From Squalus acanthias (lineage: Eukaryota), in assembly GCA_030390025.1 (NCBI GenBank), contig CM059432.1, positions 50,222,001 to 50,286,000 on the forward strand: a stretch of 64,000 bases of DNA, read 5' to 3'. The notes below the pieces were generated by a model, which was given only the letters and a program-made list of their open reading frames with translations, was not told where the DNA came from and made no database searches. This document shows, piece by piece, positions 7,661 to 63,673 of the stretch (position 1 is the first letter of the stretch; each line of letters starts with the position of its first letter). The position numbers and the translations under genes were made by a program.

Positions 7661-7769
7661 ACTGACCAATACATCATCATCTTGGACACAATGCAAAAAT
7701 AAAAGCCAGCACAAAATAAACATTGCAAACAAAATTTATAAAGCAACTCATGCCATATTCCATACACAA

Positions 7770-9571: not shown

Positions 9572-9577
9572 TTTTCA

Positions 9578-14073: not shown

Positions 14074-16462
14074 AGCCTAGAAATTCCCCATTGTAGCGCT
14101 GGCCGTTAAGGCCGGTTTTGTTAAAAAAATGGCGGCTGCCTCACTTCCACCCACTTCCAGTGTGGGACATGATGGTCACCATTTTGGTGAGGGCCATAGC
14201 GCTGCCATTGTCAGCGCTGGCCTCTCAAATTTAAATGAATAGATAGTGATGTCAATCGGCGTGCAATGCCTGATTTGACGCCACGACTGCTATTTTGGAC
14301 ATTCTCGCACGCCATAACGCCCTGTCCTAAATACGCACAGAAAAACGTGCATGAGGCAGTCCTGCAGAGACCAGTGACTTCAAACCCAATTCCCCTTTCA
14401 ACATTAGTCCCACACCTTACCTTCCCTCAGTTACCGGCCTTAATGTCAGCGCTTCTTAAAAGGACACACACATCTTTCAGGTAAGCTTGGATTTCAGCTT
14501 TTGGACTTTAACAAAATATTTTATGGAAGTAGTAGCTTGAGGCAATACATTTAAAAAGTTGTTAAAGTGTGCAGGGAGTGCTGCTGGATGCTTGCAAGGT
14601 TTTGGATGGTAAAGGAAGGCCTCTGAGAAGACAGAAAATGCTGCAAATACTCAGCAGGTCAGGCAGCATCTGTGGAAAGAGAAACAGAGTTAGCGTTTCA
14701 GGTCGAGATGCTGCCTGACCTGCTGAGTATTTCCAGCATTTTTTGTTTTTATTACAGATTTCCAGCATCCACAGTATTTTGCATCTGAGAAGACCACTTG
14801 CTCACAGTCCTGAGGGGTACATGGAGATGAAGCAGAGGCAGTCAAGGGAACAAGCTGCTCGCAGATGGTTGAGGAAGATGCAGAAGAGGACGACGCAGAA
14901 GAGGTGGAAGCGGAAGGAAGGATGCAACCCAGACAGCTCCTTTCTGGTCAGGTTATCCGGGATGGAATCATCCGCCTGCGGTACCAGTGACTTCAACCCC
15001 AATTCCCCTTTCAACATTAGTCCCACACCTTACCTTCCCTCTGTTACTGACCATCGCAGCGTCCTCTTGGCCACAATGCTGAAGTAAAAGCCACCACAAA
15101 GCAAACTTTCCAATCCAACTTTATCTATATATGCATCCAATATGACATCAAGAATTCAACTAATCACGCTTGTGTATTCTCTTCGTGACTGTCTTGTGTG
15201 TACCTTTGCCTATACTAGTTCTCTACTCCAGTGGCTGCAGCATGGTTGGTGGAAGGCTGCCGACTTTCAGTGGAGAACACTGCAGATGGCCTTGCAGGAC
15301 GACCTCGAGGAGCTGATGGCTGCGAGTGTGATATTGAGTGATGGCGTTTCTTCTTCTTGTTCCTCACTCTGCTCTCCCTCTTCTTGGTCAACCACTGGCT
15401 GGATTTCTTGGGTGTCTGAAATGAGGAAGGCTTGGGTAGGGTTGTGGTGAAGGGAGGACGAGAACGCAAGAGGTGCATGCTGACACCATGCACAGCTTGT
15501 ACATCAGAAGAGATTGTGGGATGAGGGGGAAGTGAGATGTGAGAAGGAGGATAACGTATGAGGATACCAGCATCTTGTATTCTTTCAGCCCTGCCGCTGA
15601 CCAAGGGCACAGCCATGCCCCTACCAAGAATGGCCAGCACCGTCTCCTCCAAAGGGGTGAGGTGTGCCTTGTGTTTGGTAGAGATTGTTGGTAGGTGAGT
15701 GATGGGGGGTAGGGGTCGTGCATTGAGCAGTGTGTGAGGCTAGTGGTGCAGTTGGTAGGAGATGGCTTTTGAAGATGTATTCACTGACCTTGACCAGTGG
15801 TCTTAGGTCATGAAACATCTTTGGGCACTGGTGCCAGGTCCTGGGGGTGACACTGCTGGCAGTGATGGCCTCAGTGATCTGGTCCCACATCCTTCTTTCT
15901 GGAGGGCCTCCTGGGCCCTTGTGGGTAGAGGACCTCTCTTACAGTGTTAACCCCCTGCACAAAGCTGGAGTGCTGTGCGTGAGACCCTGGGTGCCCCTTC
16001 CCTGGCTTGCAGAGCCATTTGTGTTAGTGCTGAAGCACTTTTACCATTATTTTTATGTACAGAAGGCAGTTCAGCTTTAAGAGCTGAAGACTGCCATTTT
16101 GGAATTATTTTTAATGTTGTTTTTTTCAGAAGGCAGTTGAGCTCGAAGTCCTAAAGACTGCCTATTTTTAAATGTTTTTATTTTTTTCATTTTAGAAGGC
16201 AGTTCCCCTTTAAGGGCTCGAGACTGCTTTCTAAAATGACAGCCTAGCTTTAAGACAATGCTGCCTTGCTCCAGGGATGCTAAGGCCCACTACATTGGGC
16301 CTCCTGCTTAGCGTACCGCCCGAAACAGTGCGTTGCACGGTAGGTTCTGCACTCCGATCATTTAAATCAGCAGGCAGCACCTGTGCTCTTTTTATGGGTG
16401 CGCTCATACCCTCGCTCCGCCGTGGCACCGCCCGTTTTCCCGCATTATCAGATTTCTAGACC
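14074..16462. mobile_element. Non-autonomous Harbinger derivative (subfamily C) with a transposase stump and a decayed Myb gene (-, about 16018-15200)
   Basis: Ends agcctagaaatt / gatttctagacc with TSD CTT. Myb exon 1 has WDQITEAITASSVTPRTWHQCPKMFHDL and donor aag|gtcagt at 15789. Acidic transposase-tail-like stretch at about 14870-14990. Confidence 0.75.
14633..14783. mobile_element. Short fold-back Penelope pLTR-derived insertion
   Basis: 11-bp TSD tctgagaagac (14622-14632, 14784-14794). The sequence matches the pLTR region at about 40617-40730, first in reverse and then in forward orientation. Confidence 0.8.
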
Positions 16463-27530: not shown

Positions 27531-27962
27531 GACCACGGAATTTAAAATGTAGGTCAGTTACGCCCATAACCATTTATAATCGAGTTTCCACGATGTAAAG
27601 CTGATTTGAGGAATGAGGCAATAGCCAAGTGCTTCAATCAGTCCACCAGCCCTTATTTCACACTGTAGCCAACTCAGTTATACCTTGTAGCTGTTATTAA
27701 GTGGTTCATGTTGAACCACTTTATCATTTATTTTAGAACTTTTTTTTGCTTTGTTTTAACATGTTGACAGTTGGGAATGTTAAATTTGTTCCTGGAATTT
27801 GCCTGACACTACGGGCTCAATTTTGCCAGGCACGAGGAGGCGGGTTTGGAGGCGTGTGAGGTGGTAAAATCGCAAAAAATGGCGGTCGGGCCCGATCCCG
27901 CCATTAAAAAGGAGTTTTCAGCAATCATCATTTGCAGGTGGCAGAACTTTTAGCAGGCCTAC

Positions 27963-29191
27963 TGTAGAGTTCTCAAAATTCCCACATTCCCCAGAGTTAT
28001 TAATAAGGGGTACCCTAGACAAAGTCGCTCTAGACCTCGTGGCAGAAGCCTGCGACATTGAACAGAAACCAGGGCCCTGCAAAAACAGCAGGCCAGGTGA
28101 CATGCCTGGGTCTGTAAGAGAGTTGCAAAATTCCCAGACCCCCAAAAGACTCAGAGGAAAAGAGAGAGACCCTAAGAAAAAGGGGCTTTGGACATTTTAA
28201 AACCAATTGAGTGTATTGGACCAGGGACATTTAAAACATGCAGACCTCAGTACAGGCTGCCAAAGGAGGCGGAGCTGGCCTCTACAGAGACAATGTTGTA
28301 TATTACAGGTGGTCGACCTGTCTGGGGAACCGGATGACCCCACTCCAGCCCCATCAAACTGCTTAGCATTTATACAAAGAAGTAAAGGAATGGAGTACTC
28401 AACACAAATGAACAACCATCAGACCAGCAATCATCCTCCACTTAACAAATATTTAATATCATTAAAGGCCATCTCCTGTCATTAAAGTTAACGACCTTAA
28501 CGAGCCCACCAGAATTAAACAAAGCACTGGGAAGATTTGGCAGGCAGATAAGGAACAATCCAACAGCATAACTTGAGACCTGTGCTGGAACAAGCCAGGG
28601 TTCTACAGAGACATGACTGGCAGTTTTGCAGACTAGCAGTTTAAACAAGCTGTTCAAGTCACACAGACAGGCCACAAGCAGGACAGCTGAAGCACAGGAG
28701 TTGTCCAGTACACAGTTCAACAGAAAACAAGACCGTTCAACAAAGAAGGCCAGCAGCTCCAGAAACAGACCGACACGCAAGAAGAAACCAGAGTAACGGT
28801 TCCAGTGACCATCAAACACCTCGAGGCACAAGGGCCTTATGAAACTTTTTACTTAAAAAGGACTTTAAACCATATCTCAACTGTCAAAGGATTTGTTTGG
28901 TAAGCATTATCCCTGGTCCTCAAGAGTCTAACTGAGCTAGTAAAGTGGGGTTGGGAGGGGTGAGGTATTGTTCTACTGTCATTTCCCTCGTTTGTACCGA
29001 AGTTAAGATTGACATGTTATGTTTCATCTCTCTTAAATAAACATTGGTTTTCCTTACACCAATCTACGGGTCTGTTTGTTTGTCCTTATCGCTGCTCGAT
29101 AAGTCCTGGGCTCAGAACTAGGAAGGGGATAGCGATTCGCAACCGCACAACAGGCAGGACAGTCCAGGAAAACATAACTGGCTGACCTACA
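27963..29191 (+). mobile_element. Possible solo LTR or other insertion inside the Harbinger
   Basis: TGTAG..CTACA ends and AATAAA at about 29036. No counterpart in sister elements. No TSD found. Confidence 0.3.
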
Positions 29192-29336
29192 AATAAGCCC
29201 CTGAGACAAAAACTCCTTACACTACTCATTGTTATGGAAGTTTGGAGCCTGAGACCCATCTCCAGTGTGACCTCCTGGGAAACCCCACTCCCCACCTTGA
29301 CTGAGCGCTTCCTCAACTGAGGTATATACCAGAAGA

Positions 29337-29563
29337 ATGGGAACCATTTATTTCCTTTCCTCCTGGACATCAGATTCGGACGAAGACCAGCTGTGACAGC
29401 AGCAGAACCCTGAACAACAGCAGCACCAATAGCAGGAGCAACAACAGGAGCGCCAAGCTGCTGCTCACCCACCTGAAACTGCACAGGCCAGAAGGTGCCA
29501 GAGCGCGACCACAGTGCTGCCCGGGATGCAAGGGACGCACTCATGTTGGCCAGATTTGCTTAG
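29337..29563 (+). pseudogene. Transposase stump: N-terminus joined to C-terminus
   Basis: MGTIYFLSSWTSDSDEDQ plus a Q-rich segment, followed directly by DHSAARDARDALMLARFA*. Both ends are homologous to 3827-5055. Confidence 0.75.
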
Positions 29564-29821
29564 CCTGCACAATCAAACACTTTTGTCTCGCACCTTCTTA
29601 CCAGAGCATCAACAATGGACAAGAACCTGCGGATTCCTATCACTCTGACCACCATACTGACAATTGCAAGTCACCCTAAGCCCTCAATGTGAAAGACCCA
29701 TTTGCGAAATGACACAGGCCACAACTTCAACAGTTTGCCATCAAATCTGTTTATGATCCCATGACAAGGATGGCTGGTCCAAATACAATACATCACAGCA
29801 CCCAAGTGACTACCCTTGTGA

Positions 29822-31802
29822 CTACTTGTGCTTTATCTTCCTCTTATGCGTGCTCCTATGTGATGCTTCCCCTGTGGCTTCAGCAGATGTGGAGGCCCCT
29901 TGCTCACTTTCTTGCTGCTCCTGTCTCGACGCCTTTGGTGGGCGTCCTCTGGGGTTGTGAACCTGTGTGGGCTCGGCCACAGTCTGCTGCTCCTGCAGCT
30001 GTGCAGGGGCTGAGACGCCCATCTCAGTTGGGTAAGGACTCTGGTGGGGCTCTGACCAAGGGCTTTGCAGTGGCATGGTCATGTGAGCGCTTGGAGAGGA
30101 GCCCCCACTTCCTTGTTGTCTGCCACCAACATCCCTCTCATGGGTCCCCCCGCTTCAGAGCTAGCAAGTGGCTTGACAGCACCTTGCTGCACTGCAGGGG
30201 GGCCATGAGGACCCGTTTCTGCACTGGAAGTCCTACTCCAGAGGACTTCCATGAAGGTCTGGTTTGTATGCTCAATAGCTGACCATCGCTCCTCAAGAGA
30301 TGTCATTCTATTCTGAACAATTACCATGTTTTCAAGACCCTGGCGACTAAGCTCCTCCATGGCCGTAGCCATCCTCTCCTTTACCATAGCCATCCTCTCT
30401 TCTACGGTAGCCAGCCTTACCACGGAGTTAGCCATCCTTTCCACGGAGGTTGCCATCCTTTCCGTGGTGATGCGTTCATGTGCCAATGCCTCCACAAAGG
30501 CTCTACTCATGTTCGCGATGGACTCCTCCATTCACTCCACACTCGCAGCAACCCTGGAGACAAAACCTGCCAGAGACTCCTGCACTTGTTCCTGGAGTTC
30601 CAGCACCGCTCTCCTTCATGGATGGACCTGGAGGCACAGGGTCGACATGCAGCTGAGCCGAGCTGGCAGAGTCCTGTGCCCTCCAACAAGGATTCTCCAC
30701 TGCTGTCCCTGTCTCCACCATCTGCTGATGCTCACTTGTGAGCTGTGATACATCAGGTGCCAACACTACTCTATCTCGCGAAGGTCCCACCGAGGTGTGA
30801 GTGTCTGCGCTGGTGCTGGGTGTGCTGAATTCTGCTGACGCTGCACCCTCAGAGGTTGCAGCTTTCTCTGAGGAGTCTGGAAGCTCAGGCTGTTCCTCCT
30901 GGACAGTGGGGATGGGGGCTTTCGATGGTCCTGTGGGGGAGTAAAGGAAAGAGTTAGAGATGTGAGGTCAATGTTACATGCACATTGAATAGTGCAGATG
31001 ATCATGTCAATCTGTTAGAGCATCAGAATCATTATCAGTGACTCATGCAATGTCAATGTGAGAAATGCCAAACTATTCTGTCACCAGCTTGCTGTGATGT
31101 GCCCATCTGTCCATCCCCCACTTGGGAATCGTCCTAGATCCCGTTGATTTCCAGGGCCGCCTCCTCCCAGGCGGTGAGCTGGGCTACTGAGAGTTGCCCT
31201 CCTCCTGTCATGGCTCTTTCCCTCTTATTGTGGGCTCTCTTTTCCTGCAATGAGGGACACAAGTGGAGTTTGAGTGAGAATGAAGGAGTGAGTGCAGAGA
31301 ATGCATAGCATAGATGCTTAGAAGGAGACAAAGGGCCCTCCCTGTGTGTTGTAAGTTGTTGTTGTTGCATCACAGTGATAGGGAGTGTGAGGGCTACATG
31401 GTCGAATAGTTAAGTGAATGTGACCATAGAGAGAGGGGCAATGGGTAAGGGTGCAGGGATGTAAGTGTCAAGTGGGGTGTGGAGGAAGAGGTTAGCAAAG
31501 CAGAGTGCTGGTGAGGAGAGGCGATGGGGATCAGATTGTAGTGATGGGAAAGTCATACTCACTTTTCCTGTGCAGAGAAGGACATGAAACCTCTTCCTGC
31601 ATTGCAGCCAGGTTCTGCAACTCATTGATATGTCGTTGACCTCCTGGGCCACTTGCAGCCACACCGCTTTTGTCTGCTGGGGTGGCTTTTTCCTCCCTGA
31701 GGAAGGGAAGAGCACCTCCTTATTCGATCTTGCTCCCTCCACCAGAGCTTGGAGGGAGGCCTCATCGAAGCGTGAAGCACACTTTTGCCTGCTGGTCTAC
31801 AT
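29822..31802 (-). pseudogene. Myb-partner gene, subfamily A (exons 31802-31563, 31244-31085, 30930-29822)
   Basis: AVWLQVAQEVN..RTWLQCRKRF; GT-AG sites; 240/160-nt exons; premature stops. Confidence 0.85.
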
Positions 31803-32925
31803 AGTCGATCAATGAAGTCCTTACTACAATCACCATAAAGTTTGCAGTCTCCAGAAGAAGCAAGGCTGCTTGCAGGCTTTAAATCCAGCAGCATTGATGA
31901 TGTCATCGGAGGCGACTTTCTGTATGAAAAGACTCATTGGGCCAGGGGTTCCCACACGCTGGGAATCAATTGCCCAACTGGGGGAAAATCGCACTTTTTC
32001 CCCACTTCACTTCGGAGTCGGGGTCCTGACACCAATGCCACCTGACATGCCCCAGCTCGCCCACACTGGCAAAATCGAGCCCTACCAGTTAACTGTTAGT
32101 CAGCTAATCAAATTTTGAGAACCCAGCTAAATAGAATAGATGAATAATTCATGAAGCTCCTCAAAAATGTCATGAACTTCCATGGGTAGTTGTTCATGAA
32201 CATGCATAACTATCTTTAAGTAATTCATGGTTGTTCATATATATCCGTGAATGTTCAAAGGAAGCTTTCTCAGTTCTGGGACATTCATAAACTGACTGAA
32301 CTGTAGTTCATCAAGTCCATAAAAAATACAGTCAGAAACAGGCTAACCCTCATGTCATGTCAAATGAAGTTCTCCATAAGCTATTATTATCTGTAAGGTG
32401 ATAAGTATGTATACTCATATTCTATTAAATGCAACAATAGTTCTTGAACTACTTATGACCAGAAAATCGAAAGTAAAAAATGAAATATTGCTTTCATTTA
32501 TGGTCTCACTTGAGTCGATTATTGAGCAAATTCGTCTACTGAATTTTAATACAAAATGCCCTATACACTGATACATTTGTTGGTTGGGATAAATGTTCAG
32601 TGTTTGGGTACGTCTCCAGGGCCTATGAAATATGAATATTTGTGATACCAGCAACTGCAGACACTGATAAGAGTCTCCCTAGAACATCAGGGAAAACTGA
32701 TGCATACTTACAACTACACCATCAGGCAATTGGACTTCCAGGTATCTGTACAAAACTACTCAGAATTCAGCTCCAATTGATAGTCCTGCTAGTATTACCA
32801 ACAGTAAAATAACTATCAATCTTGGAGTTCAGACATGTGGGGAGAGGTAACAGTGAGTGACTTAAGAAGGGAAGAAAACTGAGAGAAACAGCAGATATAG
32901 ACTTTTTGGAACACTTTCGATCACG

Positions 32926-33678
32926 GGGGGAAAACTTCGTTAGCGACCATTTTGGATCACTAACATCGCCTGGGCGTTAAATTTAGCGCCCGGCAAAAAA
33001 TAGTGCTGGCGATCGCCAAATTCAGTTTTAGCGCCCCAAGAGGGAGGTGGAGCATTAATTCAAGCGCTCCACTTCCTTCTTAGAGCGCTAACCCTGAATA
33101 TCGGGGTAGTGTGTTCTGCAGCGCTACGCAATGGGCCACGTAGCGCTGCCGCATGGAAGGGCTCTTCCCCTCATTAAAGGGGAGGGCCCAAGCCCACAAC
33201 TCTGTGGGGCCCTACCTGGACCACCAGGGAGCGGAATGCCATGCCAGCAGTCCAGCACACAAGAGGAGTGCCGGGCTGCCAGATCGCAACATGGACCCCG
33301 CGTTGAAAGACGTAACGGGCCGCGACAAGTAAGTCGGATGATTTTTTTTCCCCGCCCGCCACCTCCCCTTTACTTACCACCCCGCGAGACTCCTGCCGCT
33401 CCGTTCCCACCCTCTGAATTAGTCGCTGTCATCGCCCGCCGCAGATTCAGGGGACGCGGGACAAATTTGCAGGCGGGGCGAAAACGGGGCGCTGCGCACG
33501 GTGATGATGTCGTCATCGCCAGCGGAGTGGGGCGCTACCGGTTACCGCTGCTGCTAAATTCCCGCTGAATTTAGCGGGAGTCGTTAGCGGCGCTGTGCCC
33601 AGGCGAAACGTCGTTTGCGCCCCATTAGCACCCCCAGAGGCACTAACAGGAGGTGCAAATGCACCAGATTTCTAGCCC
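32926..33678. mobile_element. Harbinger-type MITE rich in TAGCGCC motifs (family Z)
   Basis: Ends gggggaaaactt / gatttctagccc; flanks acg/aca. Similar to 59695-60446. Confidence 0.75.
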
Positions 33679-34439
33679 ACAATCTCTTATCTCTTTCACT
33701 CATATGCTCAAACTACATATTACCCTAGCCTCCATTAATTTAATTGAGTCAGTGTCCATGCATACAGCTGCTGTGGGATCCAGCAATCCTTCATTCTAAC
33801 CTCATCCCTGTCATGGTACCAGAGAACCAATAACACAAATCACACCCATCTGGCAGTTTGCATTCCATTTAACTTTACATTAAATTTGAATTTAATCAAC
33901 CAATTTCTTTGCTTAATTTCACTCAATTGTCATGAAGACTTTCCGTGCTTCATTCTATTTCTGTATGCAGGCACTGCTTTATAACCTGGGCCTTTTTCCT
34001 CTGTCAATTTTCCTCCTTCATCTGTGCCTTTTGAGTTAATTTGGTATCTATAACTCATTTAGACTTATGTTCAAGTGATATAAATCTTCATCAAGAAATC
34101 TAGCGCACAATTGTTAAATAATTTGACGCAGTGCTTAGCTGCAGTTCTCTATAGCTCTTTCCCAACTTGGATCTTGTAGTCTTGATGAAAATCTTTTATG
34201 TGAGAAAGGCAAGCCAGAGAGTCCCTCATTTGCCTCCAGCCCATAAACCAGTATAGCAAAAAGAGAACTAAAAACCTGGGGGCACCCAGCCAACTTAAAA
34301 GCCCTTCTTCCGTTTTGATGTCAATGTAATACAAAAGAAAAAGAGGTACCATCACAATTAATCAAAAATAGATTTCAAAAGGCAGTAGGGCCTCTCTCAA
34401 TCCTTACAAGCAATGCACGCACCTTAAGAATTAAGCAAA

Positions 34440-35352
34440 ACTTTGAGAAAAGTACTTTCCGCCACTACCATCCATCTCCTTAAACCCTTCTCCCCTGCTG
34501 CCTTTGCCCTCACCTCCAAAAATCAATTGCAAGGTGCTCATGGATTTCTTTGTCACTAAGATTGAGACCATCCATTAGCTACCTCTGTCACATCCATCCC
34601 TTCCCTCATCACCAAATCTATCCCACTCCCTGGCCACTGTCAAAGGCTGAACCAAATTGTTCACAAACTCGACATCCTATTTGACCCTGAGCTGAACTTC
34701 CGACCCATATCCTCTCCATTACCAAGACCCATTTCCACCCCTGCCTCAGCCCATCTGCTGTTGAAACCCTCATCCATGCTTTTTGTTAGCTCCAGACTAT
34801 TCCAATGCTCTCCTGGCCGGCCTCCTATATCCACCCTCCATAAAGTTGAGCTCATCCAAAACTCCGCTGCCCGTATCATAACCCACACCAAGTCCCGCTC
34901 ACCCATCACCCCTGTGCTCACTGACATACACTGGCTCCCAGTCCACCAGCACCTTGAATTTAAAATTCTAATCTTCATGTTTAAATCCCTTCATGGCCTC
35001 GCCCCTCCCTATCTCTGTAACCTCCTCCAGCACTACAACCCTCCAAAACTCTGCATTCCTCTAACTCTGGCCTCTTATGCATCCCCCACTCTCTCATTAT
35101 TGGTGGTAGTGCCTGCAACCCTCTAGGCCCTAAGTTCTGGAATTGCCTACCTAAAGCTCTCTGCATCTCCACCTCTCTCTCCATCTTTAAGACCCTCCTT
35201 AAAACCTACCACTTTGACCATGTTTTTAGTCACCCCTCCTAATATCTCCTTCTTTGGTTCGGTGTCAATTTTCATCTATAACGCTGGTGAAGCTCCTTGG
35301 GATGTTTTCCTATGTTAAAGGCGCTAGATAAATGCAAATTGCTGTTGTTGTT
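34440..35352 (+). mobile_element. Old L2 LINE 3' fragment
   Basis: LIQNSAARIIT..ITPVLTDIHWLPV..FKILIFMFKSLHGLAPPYL; tail aaggcgctagataaatgcaa..(gtt)n. Confidence 0.85.
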
Positions 35353-35531
35353 GAGTAATGCAGATAGGGAGCATTGGTACCAGCGGGCTGGTGCCTTTAC
35401 AGGCTGATATCTCTGTGGTGTTCCTCCTAATCATCCTTTTCTTCGTCCTCAAATCAGAAGAACAGGCAGAGGCTTAAGGGTGACCTCCATTGGTTTCCAA
35501 GGTTTGGTCTGCAACCTTAACAATATTTACT

Positions 35532-36152
35532 GGCCCATAATTTGTGGTCAGCGGTGATGCAGAAGTGATGTCATCATGCTGTCTAAGCAGCCAATCACAT
35601 TGAAGAATTTTCACAGACAGCAAACCAGGAAATAAAAAGAAGCTTTTATCCTCACTTTTTAAATATGTTACAGAGAGCAAAATAAAGATTAAACATTTCA
35701 TATGGGGATAAGGTAGAAGCTGAAATATCATGAACAAACTTAAAAAAAAAAAAATAATTGTAATTTTTATCATAATGGAGAAATTTGACATTCCACAAAT
35801 ATAAAAATTAGTTATTCAGAGCCAGAACAATTGGTTAGGAGTCAATATGCTGTTAAAACTCCAGTTATACCTATTCTAACAAGGCTTTACATTTAATGGG
35901 TTATTTAACAGCGATATTAGCGAGGAAAAGTTCAAGTTTTCATCAGTTCCACTGATTTCACCGATTGCCGTCTATCGGGGCGAGTGGCGGTGGGGGGGGG
36001 GGTGGGGGGCGGTCCACAGCGCAGCCAGTGTCGGAGCAGTGAATGACTGACCGCAACTTCAGGATTTCCACATTTAGATATGCATGCGCTAAATCCTGAC
36101 GTTGCAATCAGTTTCAGAGGGGTAATGATGGCAATCACTGACAGTCCGGGCC
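35532..36152. mobile_element. MITE, family Y-like
   Basis: Ends ggcccataattt / gtccgggcc; flanks act/att. Internal similarity to 50423-51169. Confidence 0.6.
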
Positions 36153-36805
36153 ATTAAAAATGTTTTAAAACTTACAAATACTTGAAAATGTTAAACTATT
36201 CAAAACTTAAATACACTTTAAAAAATGTTTAAAGATCCTGCTCTGGGGTCTTTGCAGCTTTTGACTGTGGAGCATTGCTGGCCCACCACAGGCCTGTTCT
36301 GCAGAACTGTTGAACACCATTTGCAGCCATTAGGCAGTGGGAACGGAATTGAAACCCTACAGGAATTCTCGCTCATCTGCTGTCATTTTCATGCAACAGT
36401 CCAAGGTCACCCCCAGCAAGCATCAGGAAAATATCCAAGAGGATTTTAGGGCAGGGATTCGATAGTGGTCCTTACCTAATAATTATTCTCTATTAGGCAC
36501 TCAAACAGTGGCAAAACAAAGGAAAATCTAGACCGTGGAGTAAGTTATTAGGAACCCCCCTTGATCGGGGCAGTATTAATGAGTTCAAGAGACAACTAGG
36601 CTTGTTTCTGAAGTGAGAAGGGATTGAAGGATATGTTGAGAAGGCAGGAATGTGGTGTTGGGATCTAAGAAAAATTGTCTGACTTGTTGGTCTTTAAATT
36701 CTTTTCCTCTTTGTAAAAAATGTATATTATTTTCAGTCTGAACTATGATGGGAAGTAAATGCAGCTGAATCAGTTTAGTCGCCATGTCTGAATTGATTAG
36801 GCTAC

Positions 36806-38393
36806 TCCTGAGGTCCCCACCATCACAGAAGCCAGCCTTCAGCCAATTCGATTCAGCAAAGGCTATGGGCCCCGACAACGTCCCGGCCATCGTACTGAAG
36901 ACTTGTGCTCCAGAATTATCCGCGCCTCTAGCCAAGCTGTTCCAGTACAGCTACAACACTGGCATCTATCCGACAATGTGGAAAACTGCCCAGGTATGTC
37001 CTGTCCACAAAAAGCAGGACAAATCCAACTCGTACAATTACCGGCCCATCAGTCTACTCTCAATCATCAGCAAAGTGATGGAAGGTGTCATCGACAGTGC
37101 TATCAAGCGGCACTTACTCACTAATAACCTGCTCACAGATGTCCAGTTTGGGTTCCGCCAAGACCACTCGGCTCCCGACCTCATAACAGTCTTGGTCCAA
37201 AAATGGTCCAAACATGGACAAAGGAGCTGAATTTCAGAGGTGAGGGGAGAGTGACTGCCCTTGACATCAAGGCAGCATTTGACCGAGTGTGGCATCAAGG
37301 AGCCCTAGTAAAACTGAAGTCAATGGGAATCGGGGGGGAAAATTCTCCACTGGCTGGAATTATACCTAGCACAAAGGAAGATGGTTGTGGTGGTTAAAGG
37401 TCAATCATCACAGCCCTAGGACATCACTGCAGGAGTTCCTCAGGGCAGTGTCCTACACCCAACCATCTTCAGCTGCTTCATCAATGACCTTCCCTCCAAC
37501 ACAAGGTCAGAAGTGGGGATGTTCGCTGATGACTGCACAGTGTTCAGGGCCATTCACAACTCCTCAGATAATGAAGCAGTCCATGCCAGCATGCAACAAG
37601 ACCTGGATGACGTTCAAGCTTGGGCTGATAAGTGGCAGGTAACATTCGCGCCACAGAAGTGCCAGGCAATGCCTATCTCCAACAAGCGAGAGCCTAACCA
37701 CCTCCCCTTGACATTCAATGGTATTACCATCGCCGAATCCCCCACCATCAACATCCTGGGGGTCACCATTGACCAGAAACTTAACTGGACCAGCCACATA
37801 AATACTGTGGCAACAAGAGCAGGTCAGAGGCTGGGTATTCTGTGACGAGTGTCTCACGTCCTGACTCCCCAAAGCCTTTCCACCATCTACAAGGCACAAG
37901 TCAGGAGTGTGATGGAATACTCTCCACTTGCTTGGATGAGTGCAGCTCCAACAACACTCAAGAAGCTCGACTCCATCCAGGACAAAGCAGCCCACTTGAT
38001 TGGCACCCCATCCACCACCTTAAACATTCACTCCCTCCACCACCGGCGTACCGTGGCTGCAGTCATCTACAAGATGCACTGCAGTAACTCGCCACGGCTT
38101 CTTCGGCAGCACCTCCCAAACCCGCAACCTCTTCCACCTAGAAGGACAAGGGCAGCAGGCCCTCCAAGTCACACACCATCCTCACTTAGAAGTATATCGC
38201 CGATCCTTCATCATCGCTGGGTCAAAATCCTGGAACTCCCTCCCTAACAGCACTGTGGGAGTACCTTCACCACACGGACTGCAGCGGTTCAAGAAGGCGG
38301 CTCACCACCACCTTCTCAAGGGCAATTAGGGATGGGCAATAAATGCTAGCCTTGTCAGCGACGCTCACATCCCATACACAAATTTTTAAAAAA
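36806..38393 (+). mobile_element. 5'-truncated LINE (same family as 1-2118)
   Basis: YRPISLLSIISKVME, ALDIKAAFD and MFADD; 3' UTR and A-rich tail. Confidence 0.9.
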
Positions 38394-38465
38394 TTACATA
38401 ATTCTGCATAATCAGATAGTTCTGAGGCACATACTTAATTTCCTTGAATTAGTAAATCCATGTTA

Positions 38466-38909
38466 GAAAGAAAGACGTGCATTTATATAGCGCATTTCCC
38501 AAAGAGCTTTAGAGCTAAAGAAGTACTTTTAGAAGTGTAGTCACTGTTGTAATGCAGGAAACATGGCAGCACAGCAAGCTCCCACAAACAACAATGTGAT
38601 AACGACCAGATAATCTGTTTTAGTGATGTTGATTGAGGGATAAATATTGGCCAAGGCACTGGGGATAACTCCCCTGCTCTTCTTCGAAATAGTGCCATGG
38701 GATCGTTGACATCCACATGAGAGGGCAAACAGGGCCTTCATTTAACGTCTCATCTGAAAGACGGCATCTCCGACAGTGCAGCACTCCCTCAATACTTCAC
38801 TGGAGTATCAGCCTTGGTTTATTGCCCTCAAGGGTCTGGAGTGGGACCTCCACCCACAACCTTCTGACTCAGAGGCAAGAGTCCTACCCACTGAGCCACG
38901 GCTGACACT
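38466..38909 (-). mobile_element. Near full-length tRNA-derived DeuSINE (SacSINE1-like)
   Basis: Head gtgtcagccgtggctcagtgggtag (A box) with a degenerate B box; central Deu-like block; L2-like tail gcgctatataaatgcacgtctttctttct. Confidence 0.8.
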
Positions 38910-39643
38910 AGTGATTTGGAATATACAAGGCTAGGACCAGCTGAGATTGTGCAGTCAGAAAATTAAAAACCTTCACTTTCTGGATTCGCAAGGTGAATCT
39001 GATGGATGAGTACCGTTATATTAGAGATGCTGGGCATGCAACTGACTCCTGTTTCCCCAACATTCAACCACCAACTGGCCAGGAGCAATGTATAATTATA
39101 GACGGTACCTTAGGGCTGGATTTTAACAGCCCCGAGGAGGTGGGTTTGGAGGCGGCTCAGCTGCTAAAATCAGAAAAAATGGCTTCAGACCCCCAACCCG
39201 CCTCCATCCCGCCCCCACGCAATTTCAGTGAGTGTCTGTTCAGCTGCTCCCAAACTGACCCGACTCCAGCCGGTGGGACAGGTAGTTAAGGCAGTTAAGA
39301 GCCTGTTAATTGCTATTTTGATAGAGGTTTCCCATTTTTGTGCCTCTGGCTCCTGTTTCCCATCTTGTCAGAAACAGTCCAGCTGCAAGGAGACGAGTTG
39401 GTGGAGGACATGATCTGTAGTCATTATTGGTGCAGAACTTTAAAAACGCTCCTGTAACATGGCTGGCATTCAAATGCAACAACTTTGTTGTTGGAGGTTT
39501 GGGTTAAGATTTTGCAAATCTCCTGACCTTGTGATTGGTCAAGCTGACACACATCTGCTGTTTGAACTGATTGGAATAATTTCAGGCCACTTTGAGTGTG
39601 CGCTTGCAAGCTTCTTGCTTCAACTGAAATCTATAACAACGGG

Positions 39644-39872
39644 ATGAGAACCATTTACATCCTCTCATCCTGGTCGTCAGATTCGGAGGAAGAGCAGCGC
39701 GGCTTAGTGCTGCCGGATGAACAAGTGGCTCAGCACACAGCCTCCTTGGAGGATGAGGAGGAGGACAGGGAGTGACTGCCTTACGGGGACGGATGTGGCC
39801 AATCCAGCAGCAGGCGACCACATTGATGGCCGTCAGGCAAGGGATGCACTTATCCATGCCAGATTCACATGA
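39644..39872 (+). pseudogene. Transposase stump with an in-frame N/C junction
   Basis: MRTIYILSSWSSDSEEEQ|RGLVLPDEQVAQHTASLEDEEE..ARDALIHARFT*, compared with the full copy's ..[21 protein letters not shown]. Confidence 0.78.
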
Positions 39873-40598
39873 GCTTACACTTCAAACACAGGTGGCTGGC
39901 AGATGGAGATGAAGATAAAGTCAAGGTTCTTATCACACTATACATCATCTGTCCAATAAATGGTGCTTTCCGATCACTGTCACCACCATCATTATAAATG
40001 GAATTAGCCCTGAGCCCTCATTCTGCAACTTCCATTTCCCAGAACACATAGACCAGAACCTCAACTGCTTGCCATCACTTTTGTTTAATGACCTCACAAA
40101 AAGAGGACACTCAATAATTTACAGCACAATAAAACACCCATGTTTTACTTTAATTCTCCGCTCCACGCCCACTCAGGCCTCTTACATTGTTCCACTGAAG
40201 CTCAACGTAAGCTCAAGGAACAGCACCTCATCTTTCGATTAGGCACTTTACAGCCTTCTGGACTCAGCATAGAGTTCAACAATTTCAGATCATAACCTCG
40301 GCCCCTATCATATATATTTTTTTTCACACTTTTTTTCTGTTTGTGTTTTCTTTTCTTCTCTCCCACATGGCAGCTGTCTTTCATTCTGCCAGTGTAATTT
40401 ACACTTCATCTAGAGCCATCTTTTGTTTCTTAACCTGTCCCATTACCATCTCCTTTTGCCTTGAATATCTCTTAATGTCTCTTAACCTCTCCTGACTTCT
40501 ATCCTATCACAGACCTTCCCTTTTGTTCTTTCATCCCCTCCCCCCTTTCCCAGCTCCTACACTTGCTTAAAAGACTGTTCCATTTCCTGCTTTTTTCC

Positions 40599-40635
40599 AG
40601 TTCTGGCGAAAGGTCATCGACCTGAAACGTTAACT
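40599..40635 (+). ncRNA. Minimal type I hammerhead ribozyme motif with a core variant (CUGGCGA)
   Basis: agtt-CTGGCGA-a-aggtc(atc)gacct-GAAAC-GTT-aact. Confidence 0.6.
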
Positions 40636-40818
40636 CTGTTTCTCTCTTCACAGATGCTGCCTGACCTGCTGAGTATTTCCAGCATTTTCTGTTTTTATTT
40701 CAGATTTCCTGCATCTGCAGTATTTTCTTTTTGTATTAGTGTTTAATTCACTGCCACCTCTCTTCCAGGAATGCCCACCTTGAAGAAGTTCGGCTCTTCT
40801 CTCTGACGGGATTTCTGT

Positions 40819-43480
40819 TTGTCTCTTTTACCTTGTTCATCTTCATTGCTTTCTGTCTCCCTTCTCGTGTTTGATCAGGTATCTACCAAAACTTGCTTTC
40901 ACAGCCACATATCTTTCCTCAGCAACTGTCTCCGGCTCCAACTTACTCCACGTGGTTTCCAACTGAAATTCCACCCTTCGTGTTTTAGATCCACCCAGGA
41001 TTACAGATATCTCCAAGATATTCAGCATTCCTCGAACCACTGCTCTCGCCCTATCCTGAGATCCATGCTGAATGCCATGCGCCACCACATGAACACTCTC
41101 GACCTCTCTCTTCAGCAGCATCGACTCACTCTATCTCAAAGCTGTCCTGGTCTGCAGTTCCATTTCATCCTTCGCCTCATCCGGCGCTTTAACAAAAAAC
41201 TTTTTTTCTTCCTTTCAGGTGTCAAGGATCGCAAGCTTTAACAACTCTTGGACACCAACGCCCCTCCGGAACCTTCTTCCCCTTCGCTTTCCTCTGACCC
41301 CATCCCTTCTCCCAATCTCACCCCCTGCCGCGTTTTCACTATCCCCTCTGACCTTCCCCCCTCTGACCCCGAACGATCAGTCCTTTGCCAAGGCTTGAGC
41401 TTCATCCCCTTGCGCCCCCACCTCAATGAATTTCGAGTTCGGCATGATGCTGAGCTCTTTTTCTGCCGCCTTCGTCTCCGTGCCCACTTCTTTGGCCAGG
41501 AGTCTTCCCCACGCACAGCTGACCCTTTCTCTCGTTTTCAGAATTCTCATTCTACCTGGACCCCTCCCTCTGGCCTCTTACCCTCTCTAGATCTTTTCAT
41601 TGCAAACTGCCGGCGTGACATCGGCCGTCTCAATTTCGCTGCTCCCCTCACTCACTCCAACCTACCTCCTTCTGAACTTGCAGCACTCCATTCTCTCAGA
41701 TCCAACCCCAACATTGCCATTAAACCTGCTGACAAGGGTGGTGCTGTTGTTTTTCGGCGAACTGACCTCTACCTAGCGGAAGCTGAACGCCAACTCTCCG
41801 ACACCTCCTCCTACCTCCCCCTGGACATGACCCTACTACTGAACATCAAGCCACCGTTTCCAAGACTGTCACTGACCTCATCTCCTCTGGAGATCTTCCC
41901 TCCATGGCCGCCAACCTCATAGTTCCCCAACCCCGCACAGCCCGCTTCTACCTCCTCCCCAAGATCCACAAACAGGACTGCCCTGGTAGACCCATCATTT
42001 CAGCCTGTTCTTGCCCCACGGAACTTATCTCTTCCTATCTCAACTCTACTTTTTTCTCCCCTTGTCCAGTCTCTTCCCACCTACATCGGCGACTCTTCTG
42101 ACGCCCTCCGCCACTTTAACAGTTTCCAGTTTCCTGATCCCAACCACCTCCTTTTCACTATGGACGTACAATCCCTCTACACCTCCATCCCCCACCAGGA
42201 TGGCCTGAGGGCGCTCCGCTTCTTCCTTGAACAGAGGCCCAACCAGTCCCCATCCACCACCACCCTCCTCCGCCTGGCTGAACTTGTTCTCACATTGAAC
42301 AACTTCTCCTTTGACTCCACTCACTTCCTCCAAATCAAAGGTGTTGCTATGGGAACCCGAATGGGTCCTAGCTATGCCTGCCTTTTCTTGGGATCTGTGG
42401 AACATTCTTTGTTCCAGTCCTACTCAGGTCCCCTCCCTCACCTCTTTTTCCGGTATATTGATGACTGTATCGGTGCCGTTTCCTGAACTAGAAAATTTCA
42501 TTCACTTTGCTTCAATTTCCACCCTTCCCTCACCTTCACATGGTCCATCTCCGACTCTTCCCTTCCCTTCCTCGACTTCTCCGCCTCCATCTCTGGGATA
42601 GGCTATTGACAAACAATCACTACAAGCCCACTGACTCCCACAGCTACCTGGACTACACTTCCTCCCACCCCGCTTCCTGTAAGGACTCTATTCCATTCTC
42701 CCAGTTTCTCCGTCTCTGCCGCATCTGCTCTGACGATGCCACCTTCCATACCAGTGCTTCCGACATGTCTTCCTTTTTCCTCAACTGATGATTCCCCTCT
42801 ACTGTGGTTGACACGGTCCTTGACCATGTCCGTTCTATCTCCCGCACATCTGCCCTCACCCCTGCCCCTCCCTCCCCTTGTCCTCACCTTTCACCCCACC
42901 AGCCTCCACATTCAATGGATCAAACTCCGCCATTTCCGCCACCACCAGCATGATCCCACCACCAAACACATCTTCCCCTCACCTCCCCTTTCAGCATTCT
43001 GAAGGGGCCGCTCCCTCCTTGACACCCTGGTCCAATCCTCTATCACCCCCAACACCCCTTCCCCTTCGCCCGGCACCTTCCCGTGCAAGCGCAGGAGATG
43101 CAACACATGACCCTATACCTCCCCCCTTCCCACTGTCCAGGGCCCCAAACACCCCTTCCAGGTGAAACAGCGATTTACTTGTACTTCTTGCAATTTAGTA
43201 TACTGTATTCGCTGCTCACGATGTGGTCTCCTCTACATTGGGGAGACCAAACGCAGATTGGGTGACCGCTTTGCGGAACACCTCTGTTCAGTCCGTAAGG
43301 GGGACCCCGAGCTTCCGGTCGCCTGTCACTTTAATTCACCGCTCCACGCCCACTCAGACCTCACCGTCCTCGGCCTCTTACACTGTTCCACTGAAGCTCA
43401 ACCTAAGCTCGAGGAACAGCACCTCATCTTTCGATTAGGCACTTTACAGCCTTCTGGACTCAACACAATTTCAGATCATA
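40819..43480 (+). pseudogene. PLE reverse transcriptase / GIY-YIG endonuclease ORF, disrupted
   Basis: IKPADKGG, FYLLPKIHK, MDVQSLYTSIPH, GVAMGTRMGPSYA, RYIDD; Cys linker GTFPCKRRRCNT; NLVYCIRCSRCGLLYIGET. Confidence 0.92.
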
Positions 43481-43794
43481 ACCTCGGCCCCTATCATATA
43501 TATTTTTTTTCACACTATTTTTTTGTTTGTGTTTTCTTTTCTTCTCTCCCACATGGCAGCTGTCTTTCATTCTGCCAGTGTAATTTACACTTCATCTAGA
43601 GCCATCTTTTGTTTCTTAACCTGTCCCATTACCATCTCCTTTTGCCTTGAATATCTCTTAATGTCTCTTAATGTCTCTTAACCTCTCCTGCCTTCTATCC
43701 TATCACAGACCTTACCTTTTGTTCTTCCATCCCCTCCCCCCTTTCCCAGCTCCTACACTTGCTTAAAAGTCTGTTCCATTTCCTGCTTTTTTCC

Positions 43795-43831
43795 AGTTCT
43801 GATGAAAGGTCATCGACCTGAAACGTTAACT
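43795..43831 (+). ncRNA. Minimal type I hammerhead ribozyme motif with an intact core
   Basis: Stem I agtt/aact, CUGAUGA, stem II aggtc/gacct, GAAA, palindromic ACGU stem III, predicted GUU cleavage triplet. Confidence 0.8.
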
Positions 43832-43920
43832 CTGTTTCTCTCTTCACAGATGCTGCCTGACCTGCTGAGTATCTGCCAGCATTTTCTGTTTTTAAAACAC
43901 CCATGTGACTACCCTTGTGA

Positions 43921-45837
43921 CTATTTTTGTGTTAACTTCCTCTTACGTGTGCTTCTACGTGGTGCTTCCCCTGTGGCTGCAGCAGATGTAGAAGCACCTT
44001 GCTCACTTTGATGCTGCGTCTGCCTAGATGCCTTTGGCAGGCGTCCTCTGGGTTTGGGAGCTTGGGAGGGCTCCTCCACAGTCTGCTTGTCCTGTGGCTC
44101 TGCAGGGGCTGAGACATCTATCTCAGTTTGGTGTGGAATGTGGGGCTCTGACCGAGGGCTCCGCAGTGGCATGGTCATGTGAGTGCTTGGAGAGGAGCCC
44201 ACACTTCCTTGTTGCCTGCCACCAACTTCCCTCTCATGGGTCAGTCACACTTCAGTGCTAGCAAGTGGCTGGAGAGCACCTTGCTGCACATCAGGAGGAC
44301 CATGAGACCCGTCTCTGTACTGGCAGTCCTCATAAAGGAGACGTCCATGAAGCTCTGGTGTTTCTCCTCAATAGATGCCCATCTCTCCTCCATTGCAGAC
44401 AATCTATTTTGAAGAGTCACCATGTTTTCGTTAGTCTGGCGACTTATGTCCTCCATGGCAGGTTGCCACCCTCTCCATGGTGGAACGTTCATGCGCCATT
44501 GCCTCCACAAAGGCAGTGCTCATGTTAGAGATGGACTCCTCCATTCTCTGCACACTCGCAGTTACCCTGGATGCAAACCCTGTCAGAGACTCCTGCACTT
44601 TGTTCCTGGAGTTCCAGCACTGCTCTCTTTCTGGATGGCCCCAGAGGCACAGCGTCTACATGCAGCTGAGCAGAGCTAGGCGAGTCCTGCGACCTCCGAC
44701 GAGGACTCTCCACTGCTGACGCTGTCTCCACCATCTGCTGATGCTCACTTGTGAGCTGTGATACACCAGGTGACAACTCTACTCTATGTCGTGAAGGCCC
44801 CGTCGAGGTGTGCGTTGCTGCGCTGATGCTGGCTGCGCTGAGTCCTGGTGACGCTGCTCCCTCTGAGGGTCCAGGTTCCTCTGAGGAGTCATCCGGCTCT
44901 TCCTCCTGGGCAGTGAGGAGGGGGACTCTCGATGGTTCTGTGAGAGAGTAAAGGCATGAGTTAGACATCAGATTTTCAGATAGCAGACAAATCCTTTTGT
45001 GTAGATGATCAGAAGTCAATCTCTATGAGCATCATATGCCATTGCAGTCAATCATGAATTGTAAATGCGAGGGATGAAAATGCATTCTGTCACCAGCTTC
45101 CTCAAATGCGCCCGTCTCTCCTTCCCCCACTTCCAGCTCCTCGCCACCTCCCACTGATGTCGTGAGCAGCCTCCTCAGCGTTTGTTAATGTGGCCAGGGA
45201 TGGTGAGCCTCCTCCTGTCTTTGCTCTCTCCCTCTTATTGTGGGTTAGCTTTTCCTGCAAGGAGGGACACAAGTGGAGTTTCAGCGAGAGTGATGGAGTG
45301 ACTGTGAAGAATCCAAAACCTAGAAGCTTAGAGGGAGACCAAGATGGAGTGAGGTGGCAAGAGGAAGGAGCCTCCCTGTGCGTTGTTAGCTGTTGTCATT
45401 GCATAGCAGTGAGAGTGAGTGTGAGGGCTGCATAGTAGAATAGTGAAGTGATTCAGTACAGAGAGAGAGATAGAGAGGTAAGGGTGCAAGAGAAGTAAGG
45501 GTAAGGTGGGATGTGGAGGAGCAAGCTGACAATGCAGAGTGCTGGTGATGAGAAGAGAAGGGAAGTAGTTTGAAGGTAAGTGTGATGTGACACTCACTTT
45601 TGATGTTCGCAGAAGATCATTGAAGCGTTTTTGGCACTGGACCCAAGTGCGTGTACATAGCGACCTTGCGCTGACCTCCTCAGCAATATCTAGCCAGGCT
45701 GCCTTTGTCTGCTGAGGAGGCTTCCTCCAGCCACCGGGAGGGAACAGAATCTGCCTACGTCCTCTTACTCCCTGCACAAGAGCTTGCAGGGAGTCCTCAG
45801 TGAATCAGGGAGCAGCCTTGGATTTTGCAGCACTCAT
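43921..45837 (-). pseudogene. Myb-partner gene, subfamily A (exons 45837-45598, 45254-45094, 44937-43921)
   Basis: AAWLDIAEEVS..RTWVQCQKRFNDL; GT-AG sites; C-terminal PKPRGRLPK..RRSTRKRK. Confidence 0.85.
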
Positions 45838-46324
45838 GGTCACCTTGGACCATTCAAGCTGCAGCAGTAATGAGAAATGAGAGGCTGAGGCTACATGGAG
45901 CCCTTAAAAACAAGTGCAGCAAAGACCTCATCAGTGCAGACCAACAGACCCGCTCACAGTCAATGCAGCAGGCAGCGCGCATGACGGGACTAATTGGTCC
46001 AATTAAATCAAAATGGGACATCAGGTCGGCTGAAACCGGCAGCGGGTCCAAAACCCGCCCACCAGGCAGCCTGACTCCATCCCGCCTCCTCCATTAAAAT
46101 CGGGGCCTTAGTCTTAATTTCCATGAAGCATATGATGTGATTTTTCCATGTCATACAGATACCACCAATTCCAGGGACTACCAGAAGAGGGCTGATACTA
46201 GTCCCTGGGGCAGCAGTGGAAGGCCTGCTGAATCTCCACCTCCCTTTTAGCTATGAACTTGGGGGAGACCTCTGACTTCCTCCTCGTTCCACGCCTCCAT
46301 TGCAGCAATGTTCAGAATCTCGAG

Positions 46325-61734: not shown

Positions 61735-63627
61735 CAGGGCAACAGCAATGGTGGCAGCACGAATGCTGTTATCCTGAGAGAGGACAGCAGGTTCGTGCTC
61801 CATGGAGCCACTGCCACTCCCCTGGGGCAGCGCCTCATCAATCCTAGTAATATGTTGGAGGACAGATTGCTGAACTGCTGTGACACCCTGCAAGCCCCTT
61901 TGAACACTGATACCCACAGCCATGGTGGCAACAGTCTAAGCTTGCGTGGCAGCAAGCTGACCTTGTGTGACTTCAGTCTGAGCTTTCACTGCAGCAATCA
62001 GACTTTTGGTGGAAGCTGCAATAGAAGCTGAGACAACAGCCATTGGATGCTGCATGGTTGGGTCCGCAAGTGTGCTGATGGAGTTGGCCATCACTTTCAT
62101 GCTGGAAAGGATGGGCTCCAAGCTATGCGCAAAGCCCTGTGCCACGTTGGTGCTGGACTCCTCCATGCCCCTTGACATTGAACGCAGGCTATCTGGCAGG
62201 TTTCCCAATGCACCAAGCATTTGTTATGTATGCCTTCTTCTGTAGCCTGCCCCATCGAAGTCCTCATCTGAGTCCTCGACAGCAGAACTCGTGTGTGACC
62301 TCGCCCTCCGGTGAGCTGGCACCTGCATTATCCTTGCTCTCTGCCTTGGCTGCAGTGAACTCATGCCCAGTGTTTTACCACATGCAGATCCCACCTTGAG
62401 TGTTAAATCAAGCGACGGTGGGTCTTCATCATCAATCTCTTCTTGGTGTTCCTCCACTGCCTGGCCAGGTGGCAGTTCTTGGGTATCTGAAAGGTAAAAG
62501 GCACAAGGGTATGGTTGTGGTGAGGGAAGGGGTGGAGAGTAAGAGGTCTTACACCATCTGCAGTTTGTAAGTAAGAAAAGATTGTACGATGAGGGGAAAG
62601 TGAGATGTGAGAAGGAGGATTAGGTATTAGGATACCATCATCTTCAATGGTTTCAGCCCCGCTGCTGATCATGGGCTCAGCAATGACCCTTCTGATAGTG
62701 GTCAGCACCGTCCTCTGCATGGGGGTTAGGAAATGCAGACGTGCCTTTCCCCCTCCAGTTAGTTCCTGTTGTCTACGGTTATGTGCCACATTGTCCTGCA
62801 AGAGAGAGGGAAGTGTGTTAGTGAGTATTGTGAAATCTGTTTGGGTGATGTGGCTGTCATGGTGGAATATCTGGCAGTGTGTGCAAGCTGTGAGATGTAG
62901 GTGCGAGGCTTGATGCAATGCTAAATGTGTGAGGGTGGGGTGGAGCATATGAATGTTAGGTATGAGTCCTGATTGATAGAGATTGTTGGTAGGTGAGTGA
63001 TGGGGTATGGTGAATTGAGCAGTATGTGAGGCTAGTGGTGCAGTTGGTGGGATATGACATTTGAAGAAGCACTCACTGATCTTGCCCACTGGTGTGAGGT
63101 CATTGAACTTCTTGCTGCACTGCATCCAGGTCCTCGGGGCTAGATTCCTGGCATTGACCTCCACGGCTATCCACTCCCACTGCATTTTGACCGTGTGTCT
63201 GGAGGGCCTTCTGGCCCCCTGTGAATACAGGATATCTCTCTTCCTTTCCACTTTCTGCACCAAGAACTCCAGTGCAGTGTCGGAAAAACCTGGAGCCCGC
63301 TGTCTCCCATGTTGTGCCATTTTTTACTGTTTCCCAGGTCAGAATCACTTCCTGCACAACTCCGAGCACCTGCACCAACCATAAAGCACCTCCCCTTTAA
63401 GAGGTGGAAGCTGGCTTTGAGAAGTGCTAGGAAGTTAAGATTTTGCACTCCCTGCTGATGCGTGTAGCCAATGAATAGTACGGTAAGCACTGGCTGCACT
63501 CAGAAATCATGCTAATTAGCAGGCAGCACAAAGATGGCGTGCTATATTAATTTCAAACAATGGGCGCAGGTTAATCGCGCATTGCGATCCCCGCACTCAT
63601 TATCGGAGCCTCTCCAATTTAGCCCCC
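61735..63627 (-). mobile_element. Harbinger subfamily B copy 2: Myb gene (exons 63320-63081, 62795-62636, 62485-) and right end
   Basis: Closely similar to 8020-9577. TIR-like end ccaatttagcccc at about 63627. The exon 1 donor is mutated (aag|atcagt). Confidence 0.8.
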
Positions 63628-63673
63628 AGTGCCTCTGACAATGCAGCACTCCCTCAGTACTGCATTGAAGTAT

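Follow-up and report, generated by a model that had tools for sequence, protein, structure and literature searches.

Our study reports on families of Harbinger DNA transposons in the 3.7-Gb genome of Squalus acanthias that have lost the catalytic core of their transposase while a gene for a Myb/SANT protein, the second gene of these elements, is left in place. The families were recognised in a 64,000-nucleotide stretch (contig CM059432.1, here C8, positions 50222001-50286000; the whole stretch is called the window below), which is rich in Harbingers and in long interspersed nuclear elements (LINEs). Three of its elements, A, B and C, are members of nonautonomous Harbinger families in which the deletion came before the amplification. 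With a probability of roughly three in four (0.74), we propose that these families arose by deletion of the transposase core and were spread by the proteins of their relatives, with the Myb gene as an unselected passenger. Elements A and B have a common organisation, in which a Myb/SANT gene of three exons lies on the minus strand and faces a transposase remnant of 227-229 bp. Their parts, together with element C, are as follows.

27813..32082, no strand: element A, a transposase-deleted Harbinger copy with terminal inverted repeats (TIRs) and a 3-bp target-site duplication (TSD), 96% to its family consensus (3279 bp)
27813..27829, plus strand: left TIR of A, 17 bp, 16/17 complementary to 32066-32082
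32066..32082, minus strand: right TIR of A, pairing with the left TIR
27963..29221, no strand: 1.26-kb insertion private to the window copy of A, absent from 29 other A loci and a gap in the alignment to the consensus
29337..29563, plus strand: transposase remnant of A, the N-terminus fused out of frame to the last codons
31563..31802, minus strand: Myb exon 1 of A, with a Myb/SANT domain (PF13873, E 1.4e-8) and, in the window copy, a stop at codon 2
31085..31244, minus strand: Myb exon 2 of A, with consensus splice sites GT-AG
29822..30930, minus strand: Myb exon 3 of A, with two frameshifts in the window copy
39113..46107, no strand: element B, a copy of the second transposase-deleted family, with TIRs and a TSD, 93-96% to its consensus (3266 bp)
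39644..39872, plus strand: transposase remnant of B, its junction (39698/39699) in frame on a 6-bp repeat at 39693-39698
40144..43892, plus strand: Penelope-like retroelement inside the window copy of B, between its two genes, with reverse transcriptase and GIY-YIG remnants and a terminal direct repeat
45598..45837, minus strand: Myb exon 1 of B (PF13873, E 1.5e-9), with a stop at codon 11 in the window copy
45094..45254, minus strand: Myb exon 2 of B, placed against the consensus
43920..44937, minus strand: Myb exon 3 of B, placed against the consensus
14074..16462, no strand: element C, of a third family (consensus 2372 bp), its transposase core gone, with an insert resembling a short interspersed nuclear element that is common to the family

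The initial annotation of the window had described A and B as elements with TIRs, TSDs, a full three-exon Myb gene and a transposase reduced to about 230 bp at differing breakpoints, and most of this description holds. The ends lie where it placed them: A is flanked by an identical 3 bp at 27810-27812 and 32083-32085, and B has 14-bp TIRs (11/14) within identical 3-bp flanks at 39110-39112 and 46108-46110. The breakpoints, whose coordinates like those of the repeats were read from position rulers, do differ, at 29504/29505 in A and 39698/39699 in B. The exon structure of the Myb genes also stands, but both window copies are broken, that of A by three stops and two one-base indels and that of B by two stops and four one-base indels. 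The junction of B is in frame, as had been claimed, but a stop follows at 39773-39775 and recurs in the family consensus; a functional mini-transposase peptide encoded by B was rejected on account of this family-wide stop 47 codons on.

The A and B junctions are each spanned by 40 of 40 scored candidates, at 95-100% identity for A and 88-100% for B, and are common to many loci with differing flanks and TSDs; on these counts we rejected a single-copy deletion after insertion, the alternative that the annotation had left to be checked. Among A loci picked by their Myb half, the junction is present in 30/30 and the core in 0/30. A motif chosen from beyond the junction, on its far side, has 1,107 exact matches, and the first 30 of these by position likewise all carry the junction and none the core. 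Both genes intact in one element, the mark of autonomy, were thus found in neither set (core absent in 30/30 and 30/30). Since 9 of 30 copies match the motif exactly, the 1,107 matches put family A at about 3,700 copies (2,200-7,500); the B junction has 421 exact matches in the genome. Consensus sequences were built from normal-length copies only (25 of A, 17 of B, 15 of C and 8 of family T, described below), and copies diverge from their own consensus by 2.9-5.7% in A and 2.6-4.5% in B. The consensus Myb frames of these two families are open, with GT-AG introns (502 aa in A, 471 aa in B), as a retained gene had been expected to be, whereas those of C and of a further family, FD, are frameshifted. 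Element C had been put forward as a third case of the same kind; it does represent a family without transposase, but in the consensus, drawn from 15 copies, the Myb gene is disrupted by two exon-1 frameshifts and by deletions in exons 2 and 3. Family C is the older one, its copies lying 6.5-10.3% from the consensus; near-identical C copies cluster on C6 at 54.7-56.8 Mb.

Complete relatives of these families, with homologous transposase cores in the parents of both A and B, are present in the same genome. The near side of the A junction, taken without the junction, has 899 exact matches, and 10 of 10 such loci continue into the transposase core, eight of them with an A-type left end (87-94%) and two of a sister type, P. 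We rejected P as the parent of A, its identity being 85% and a closer pool being at hand, represented by R, the consensus of seven complete A-type parents. R and A are 0.0% apart in the N-terminus and 1.3-1.7% in exon 3, and 11-16% apart in the first two exons and at the right end; the four parent copies that cover exon 1 to the right end are also widely divergent among themselves. The open frame of the A consensus is explained by this recent descent from a working parent, exon 3 being only 1.3-1.7% off. For B, complete elements with a core make up 3 of 30 loci selected by Myb. With their short TIRs and 3-bp TSDs (A, B and C), a DDE_Tnp_4 core in the parents (PF13359, E 4.2e-37 on the relative P5) and a Myb/SANT second gene, the elements have the traits of PIF/Harbinger transposons. 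P5 itself (locus L171, 474-4733) is a young complete element with an open 411-aa transposase, TIRs and a TSD, and is 96.8% identical to a second copy, P6. The window holds one further complete member of the group, which served as the reference element for the deletion families FD and G.

3278..7538, no strand: element F, a complete but decayed two-gene Harbinger (PF13359, E 4.8e-34; PF13873, E 1.7e-12)

Trees built on the left block and on exon 3 place A with R and P, B with a lineage Q and with T, and FD with F and G, at supports of 86-100. Each family is grouped in this way with its own complete parents, and the deletions in A, B and FD are, on these alignments, independent events; the repeated and independent loss that had been claimed from the window is upheld. 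The junctions of A, B and FD/G all lie on 6-bp direct repeats found at both ends of the transposase gene. In A the breakpoint falls directly after the repeat at 29499-29504, which is the homologue of the repeat in the F lineage and matches at 5/6 positions in the parents; the 6-bp repeat of B occurs at both ends of the parent gene; and in G most of the Myb gene was lost across a 7-bp repeat. The breakpoints of A and FD/G coincide at one homologous base. A single ancient deletion common to them was nonetheless rejected, as the trees put each with its own parents and the 6-bp repeat is there in both lineages; copying of the junction from one to the other by conversion is conceivable. The suggestion that low-complexity stretches at the gene ends could favour such deletions is supported, in that short repeats at both ends mark the breakpoints. 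The deletions are likely to have arisen by microhomology-guided repair between the short repeats that bracket the transposase gene, and we propose that this bracketing is the reason why the transposase tends to be lost first. The junctions would fit such repair at excision breaks, as in the abortive gap-repair model applied to Medicago elements in the part of that report available (PMC2213677). At another locus (L260) a minisatellite of more than 1.3 kb has grown out of the acidic-tail codons of a Harbinger transposase.

Families A, B and C would then each go back to a deletion within the transposase core and have multiplied afterwards, likely in trans with the proteins of complete relatives and with a Myb gene that is likely an unselected passenger inherited from the full-length parent. 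Elements with Myb alone likely represent an intermediate in a nested series that leads from complete elements to loss of the transposase and then to loss of Myb as well. Both proteins are reported to be needed for PIF/Harbinger transposition and to be able to act in trans, mPing having been moved in this way, and smaller elements are reported to excise and insert more often (PMC10288884, as far as its available text goes). In a census of 16 blocks of 50 kb (0.8 Mb), taken at a fixed position on C1-C16, with miniature inverted-repeat transposable elements not counted and a tandem array on C5 left out, the core stands beside Myb in nine elements (seven clear, two partial), and whole Myb without the core occurs in three (one A, one FD and one of no assigned family). 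The commonest derivative class is family G, which has both deletions and only exon 1 left, with nine copies against one of A; scaled genome-wide this gives about 42,000 copies (19,000-79,000). The census also holds two C-type elements, one transposase-only element with TIRs and a TSD, and eight diverged core fragments with no detectable Myb, which were not classed. The array left out, at C5 30.006-30.050 Mb (L171-L175), has a period of about 2.43 kb and at least 13 units, which are based on a piece of a Harbinger whose Myb exon 1 is frameshifted.

The steps of the series can be followed within lineages. FD has the same transposase junction as G and a frameshifting exon-3 deletion in 30/30 loci, the query itself carrying this deletion. 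In the C lineage the transposase junction occurs with exon 3 still whole in 2/29 loci. In the B lineage the double-deleted BT (about 1.6 kb) makes up 16/29 junction-selected loci, and a Myb-deletion junction lies 274-414 bp away in 34 of the 68 B-junction matches listed, so that B with a whole Myb gene makes up no more than half, and probably a small fraction, of the elements with its junction. The reciprocal derivative is T (2666 bp), whose consensus has an open transposase frame of 415 aa and a Myb gene that is cut off directly behind exon 1; it accounts for 17/30 loci found with a transposase query. The T junction has 557 exact matches, and 34 of the 100 listed are BT, which gives roughly 400-900 copies of T under the match rates tried; the split among B, T and BT is based on the coordinates of listed matches and on earlier loci. 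A alone exceeds T about four- to ninefold in copy number. An excess of Myb-keeping over transposase-keeping derivatives, as the initial annotation had anticipated, is seen at the level of families, but T is more numerous than B within B's own lineage and partly undercuts it. Exon 1 is kept in the abundant double-deleted G and BT, and in T.

The annotation had further suggested that these may be semi-autonomous families, which would retain the Myb gene since they need it, and this part is not supported. G, BT, C and FD were amplified with a broken or deleted Myb gene, as well as or better than A and B, and we therefore regard the gene as dispensable for spread. Within families, from which six duplicate or near-duplicate loci were removed before the analysis of selection, the ratio omega of amino-acid to silent change is 0.88 (A) and 1.08 (B) for private changes, which are thus neutral, and Myb is still open in 2/31 full copies of A and 3/29 of B, about nine in ten being broken. 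No amino-acid deficit against introns was found in A, B or FD, at the limited power of about 30 full copies each; in A exon 1 the counts of shared to single amino-acid variants are 14/53 against 42/133 in introns (p=0.73). What departs from the introns in this exon is an excess of silent variants (shared/single 25/26, p=0.0009), and the flanking right end is in excess too, while A exons 2 and 3 and the whole of B are flat. The between-family ratio of nonsynonymous to synonymous change (dN/dS) is below 1, as predicted (A vs P 0.49, A vs B 0.42), but it is not usable as evidence of need, because it covers time spent inside complete elements. Among splice joints listed from four runs guessed to be RNA none matched a Myb intron, and this was counted neither way.

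Several observations weigh against an unselected Myb gene or against the simple order of loss proposed above. When high-frequency shared variants of A are pooled, omega is 0.34-0.40 (p=0.011), and in the shared classes of exon 1 alone it is 0.10-0.30; FD has a similar, milder excess of silent variants in its first two exons (p about 0.02-0.03). We infer that the low omega in A exon 1 reflects silent variants imported from complete relatives, in which Myb is selected: shared exon-1 variants of A are found in at least two parent copies in 8/23 cases, against 4/79 for singletons (p=0.0006), and one exon-1 haplotype is limited to a 210-bp tract. However, 15 of the 23 shared variants are untraced, just four parent copies covering exon 1, and A exon 1 is 9-23% from all four of them. 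Stops and frameshifts at high frequency were not seen in A, where the test on shared indels is without power (0 shared frameshifts in A and 1 in B; p 0.26 and 1.0). On the side of the census, the transposase-only element looks single-copy, its junction being spanned by 1/40 scored candidates; the amplified families that keep Myb number three to four (A, B, FD and perhaps a precursor of C) against one, T, that keeps the transposase; and no Myb-deleted derivative of A turned up, although no direct search for one was made. Recombination, by which the element pool likely swaps modules, forms part of our explanation, and we judge probable the joint inference of a microhomology origin, mobilisation in trans, recombination among lineages and no need for an element's own Myb. 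Divergence between related elements is 9-25% in the first two Myb exons and the right end, 3.5-10% in intron 1 and 3-6% in exon 3.

The exon-1 signal also bears on an alternative in which A, and perhaps B, are semi-autonomous, encoding a Myb protein for their own ends under selection for its reading frame and borrowing the transposase from complete or T-type elements. The open consensus frames, the low omega among shared A exon-1 variants, the absence of the core from all 30 Myb-selected A loci and the distance of 11-16% from the parent consensus in the first two exons and the right end, but not in exon 3, are all as it would predict, and B and T are reciprocal to one another, with left ends that are closely related. 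The signal is nevertheless a silent excess and not an amino-acid deficit, B has none, and the double-deleted BT, G and C have spread without a whole Myb gene. One GC-rich subterminal hexamer, a putative binding site, recurs in A, P, B, T, FD and F, so that the ends do not look private to a family. A diffusible protein, moreover, gives the copy that encodes it no advantage. We consider semi-autonomy unlikely, and find similarly doubtful its most specific form, in which A is a parasite that supplies specificity through a Myb variant matched to its own right end while borrowing only the nuclease, and B and T are the parts of one split Harbinger, each complementing the other; if true, a two-component transposon would here be distributed, in a vertebrate, over separate elements of high copy number.

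The lopsided family count would also be expected if selection acted against the transposase, copies of which would be silenced or purged more often, leaving Myb to survive by default; the 0.8 Mb of the census, with three coreless elements that have a whole Myb gene against one apparently single-copy transposase-only element with ends, point the same way. Elements with both genes are abundant in that sample all the same (nine, seven of them clear), T was amplified with an open transposase, the eight diverged transposase fragments stand without detectable Myb, and the gene-end repeats account for the order of loss without selection, which makes this explanation rather improbable. That the families are dominant repressors favoured by the host, whose surplus Myb occupies ends or titrates transposase and so damps transposition, is very improbable: the number of Myb gene copies is its sole support from this genome, alongside an overexpression inhibition seen for a large Ping element in yeast in the available part of PMC10288884, whereas the copies decay neutrally, about nine in ten being broken, and a complete family younger than A kept amplifying (P5/P6, one with the open 411-aa transposase).

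The target sites of the families were also compared. Exact TSDs flank 22/27 copies of A and 4/16 of B, with ten more B copies showing one mismatch; taken together, B, T and BT of similar age have exact TSDs in 7/29 (p=2e-5 against A), their faults being mostly one mismatch spread over all three positions. The mobilising transposase may have left this difference in fidelity as its footprint; for mPing, cleavage is reported to fall within the TSDs (PMC4561436, in the text available). A, B, T and FD loci have in common a palindromic 5-3-5 target preference around the TSD, often in microsatellite-like tails. Family A sequence was found in sequencing runs assigned to six organism codes. The A junction is spanned by one contig, from the organism coded C, that differs at 22 of 230 bases; judged from these sequences, family A may be shared among related species.

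The initial annotation had also listed copies of a subfamily B as Myb without transposase. The fragments presumably meant (8040-9581 and 61750-63630) are cut by LINEs and have no left end in the window, and the claim could not be upheld for them.

7654..9581, minus strand: Harbinger Myb fragment cut by a LINE, without ends and not classifiable
61750..63630, minus strand: Harbinger right half cut by a LINE, holding the Myb gene and the right end and not classifiable, its left end not seen in the window

In a profile search, the PF13873 cut-off is passed by exon 1 in A, B and F and in the fragment at 63 kb. As for the insertions in the window elements, that in A (27963-29221) has a 4-bp duplication and end dinucleotides of long terminal repeat (LTR) type and is likely a solo LTR, and the 3.75-kb Penelope-like insertion in B shows PF00078 (E 1.1e-5, below its cut-off), PF01541 (E 6.5e-5) and a direct repeat at 40147-40697 / 43328-43894. 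Elsewhere in the window a Gypsy-like element at 19955-23801 has long gag-pol frames of 654 and 755 aa, with a 248-bp direct repeat at 19688-19935 / 23809-24056 that is 97.6% identical.

The closest known counterpart is Harbinger-1M_cIno of C. inopinata, for which the available part of a 2026 report (PMC13668399) describes amplified derivatives with only the MADF (Myb) gene at 19 loci, 14 of them intact, beside few DDE-only and many shorter noncoding derivatives; it terms the MADF-only configuration previously unreported, and proposes supply in trans, the semi-autonomous model, without showing or testing it. Families A and B are likewise amplified derivatives with an open consensus Myb gene and no DDE frame. 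They differ in lying in a 3.7-Gb genome at thousands of copies with several independent junctions, and in that complete parents are abundant, a family that keeps the transposase has amplified too, and selection was tested directly, with no amino-acid deficit found. No sign of current activity was seen. Autonomous vertebrate Harbingers such as Harbinger3_DR and those of teleosts have, in the portions available of their reports, the same two genes, short TIRs and a 3-bp TSD (PMC9179366, PMC10288884, PMC5339849); A, B and C are unlike them in having no catalytic core. For teleosts, the available text of PMC9179366 states, in the context of Spy-like transposase-only elements, that no single-ORF Harbinger was found. 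Medicago MtPH and mPing/Ping offer further nonautonomous internal-deletion derivatives, with mosaic copies, a gap-repair model, mobilisation in trans and an advantage of small size (PMC2213677, PMC10288884); as far as these partly available sources go, however, they are mostly noncoding or without ORF1, while here a whole gene is left in several amplified intermediates. A Harbinger expansion is reported in a newt, and Myb-only families are not described in the available part of that report (PMC5741667). We found no vertebrate Myb-only Harbinger family in the literature covered, which did not include Repbase, subscription journals or supplements.

Our results thus extend Myb/MADF-only Harbingers, which we found described in one nematode, to a vertebrate genome, where they reach thousands of copies. 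The replicate families, their parent pools and a reciprocal class, all in one genome, allow retention of the gene through need to be tested against retention through inheritance, and the test favours inheritance. The families scatter thousands of Myb/SANT genes across the genome, raw material for domestication of the kind that gave rise to NAIF1.

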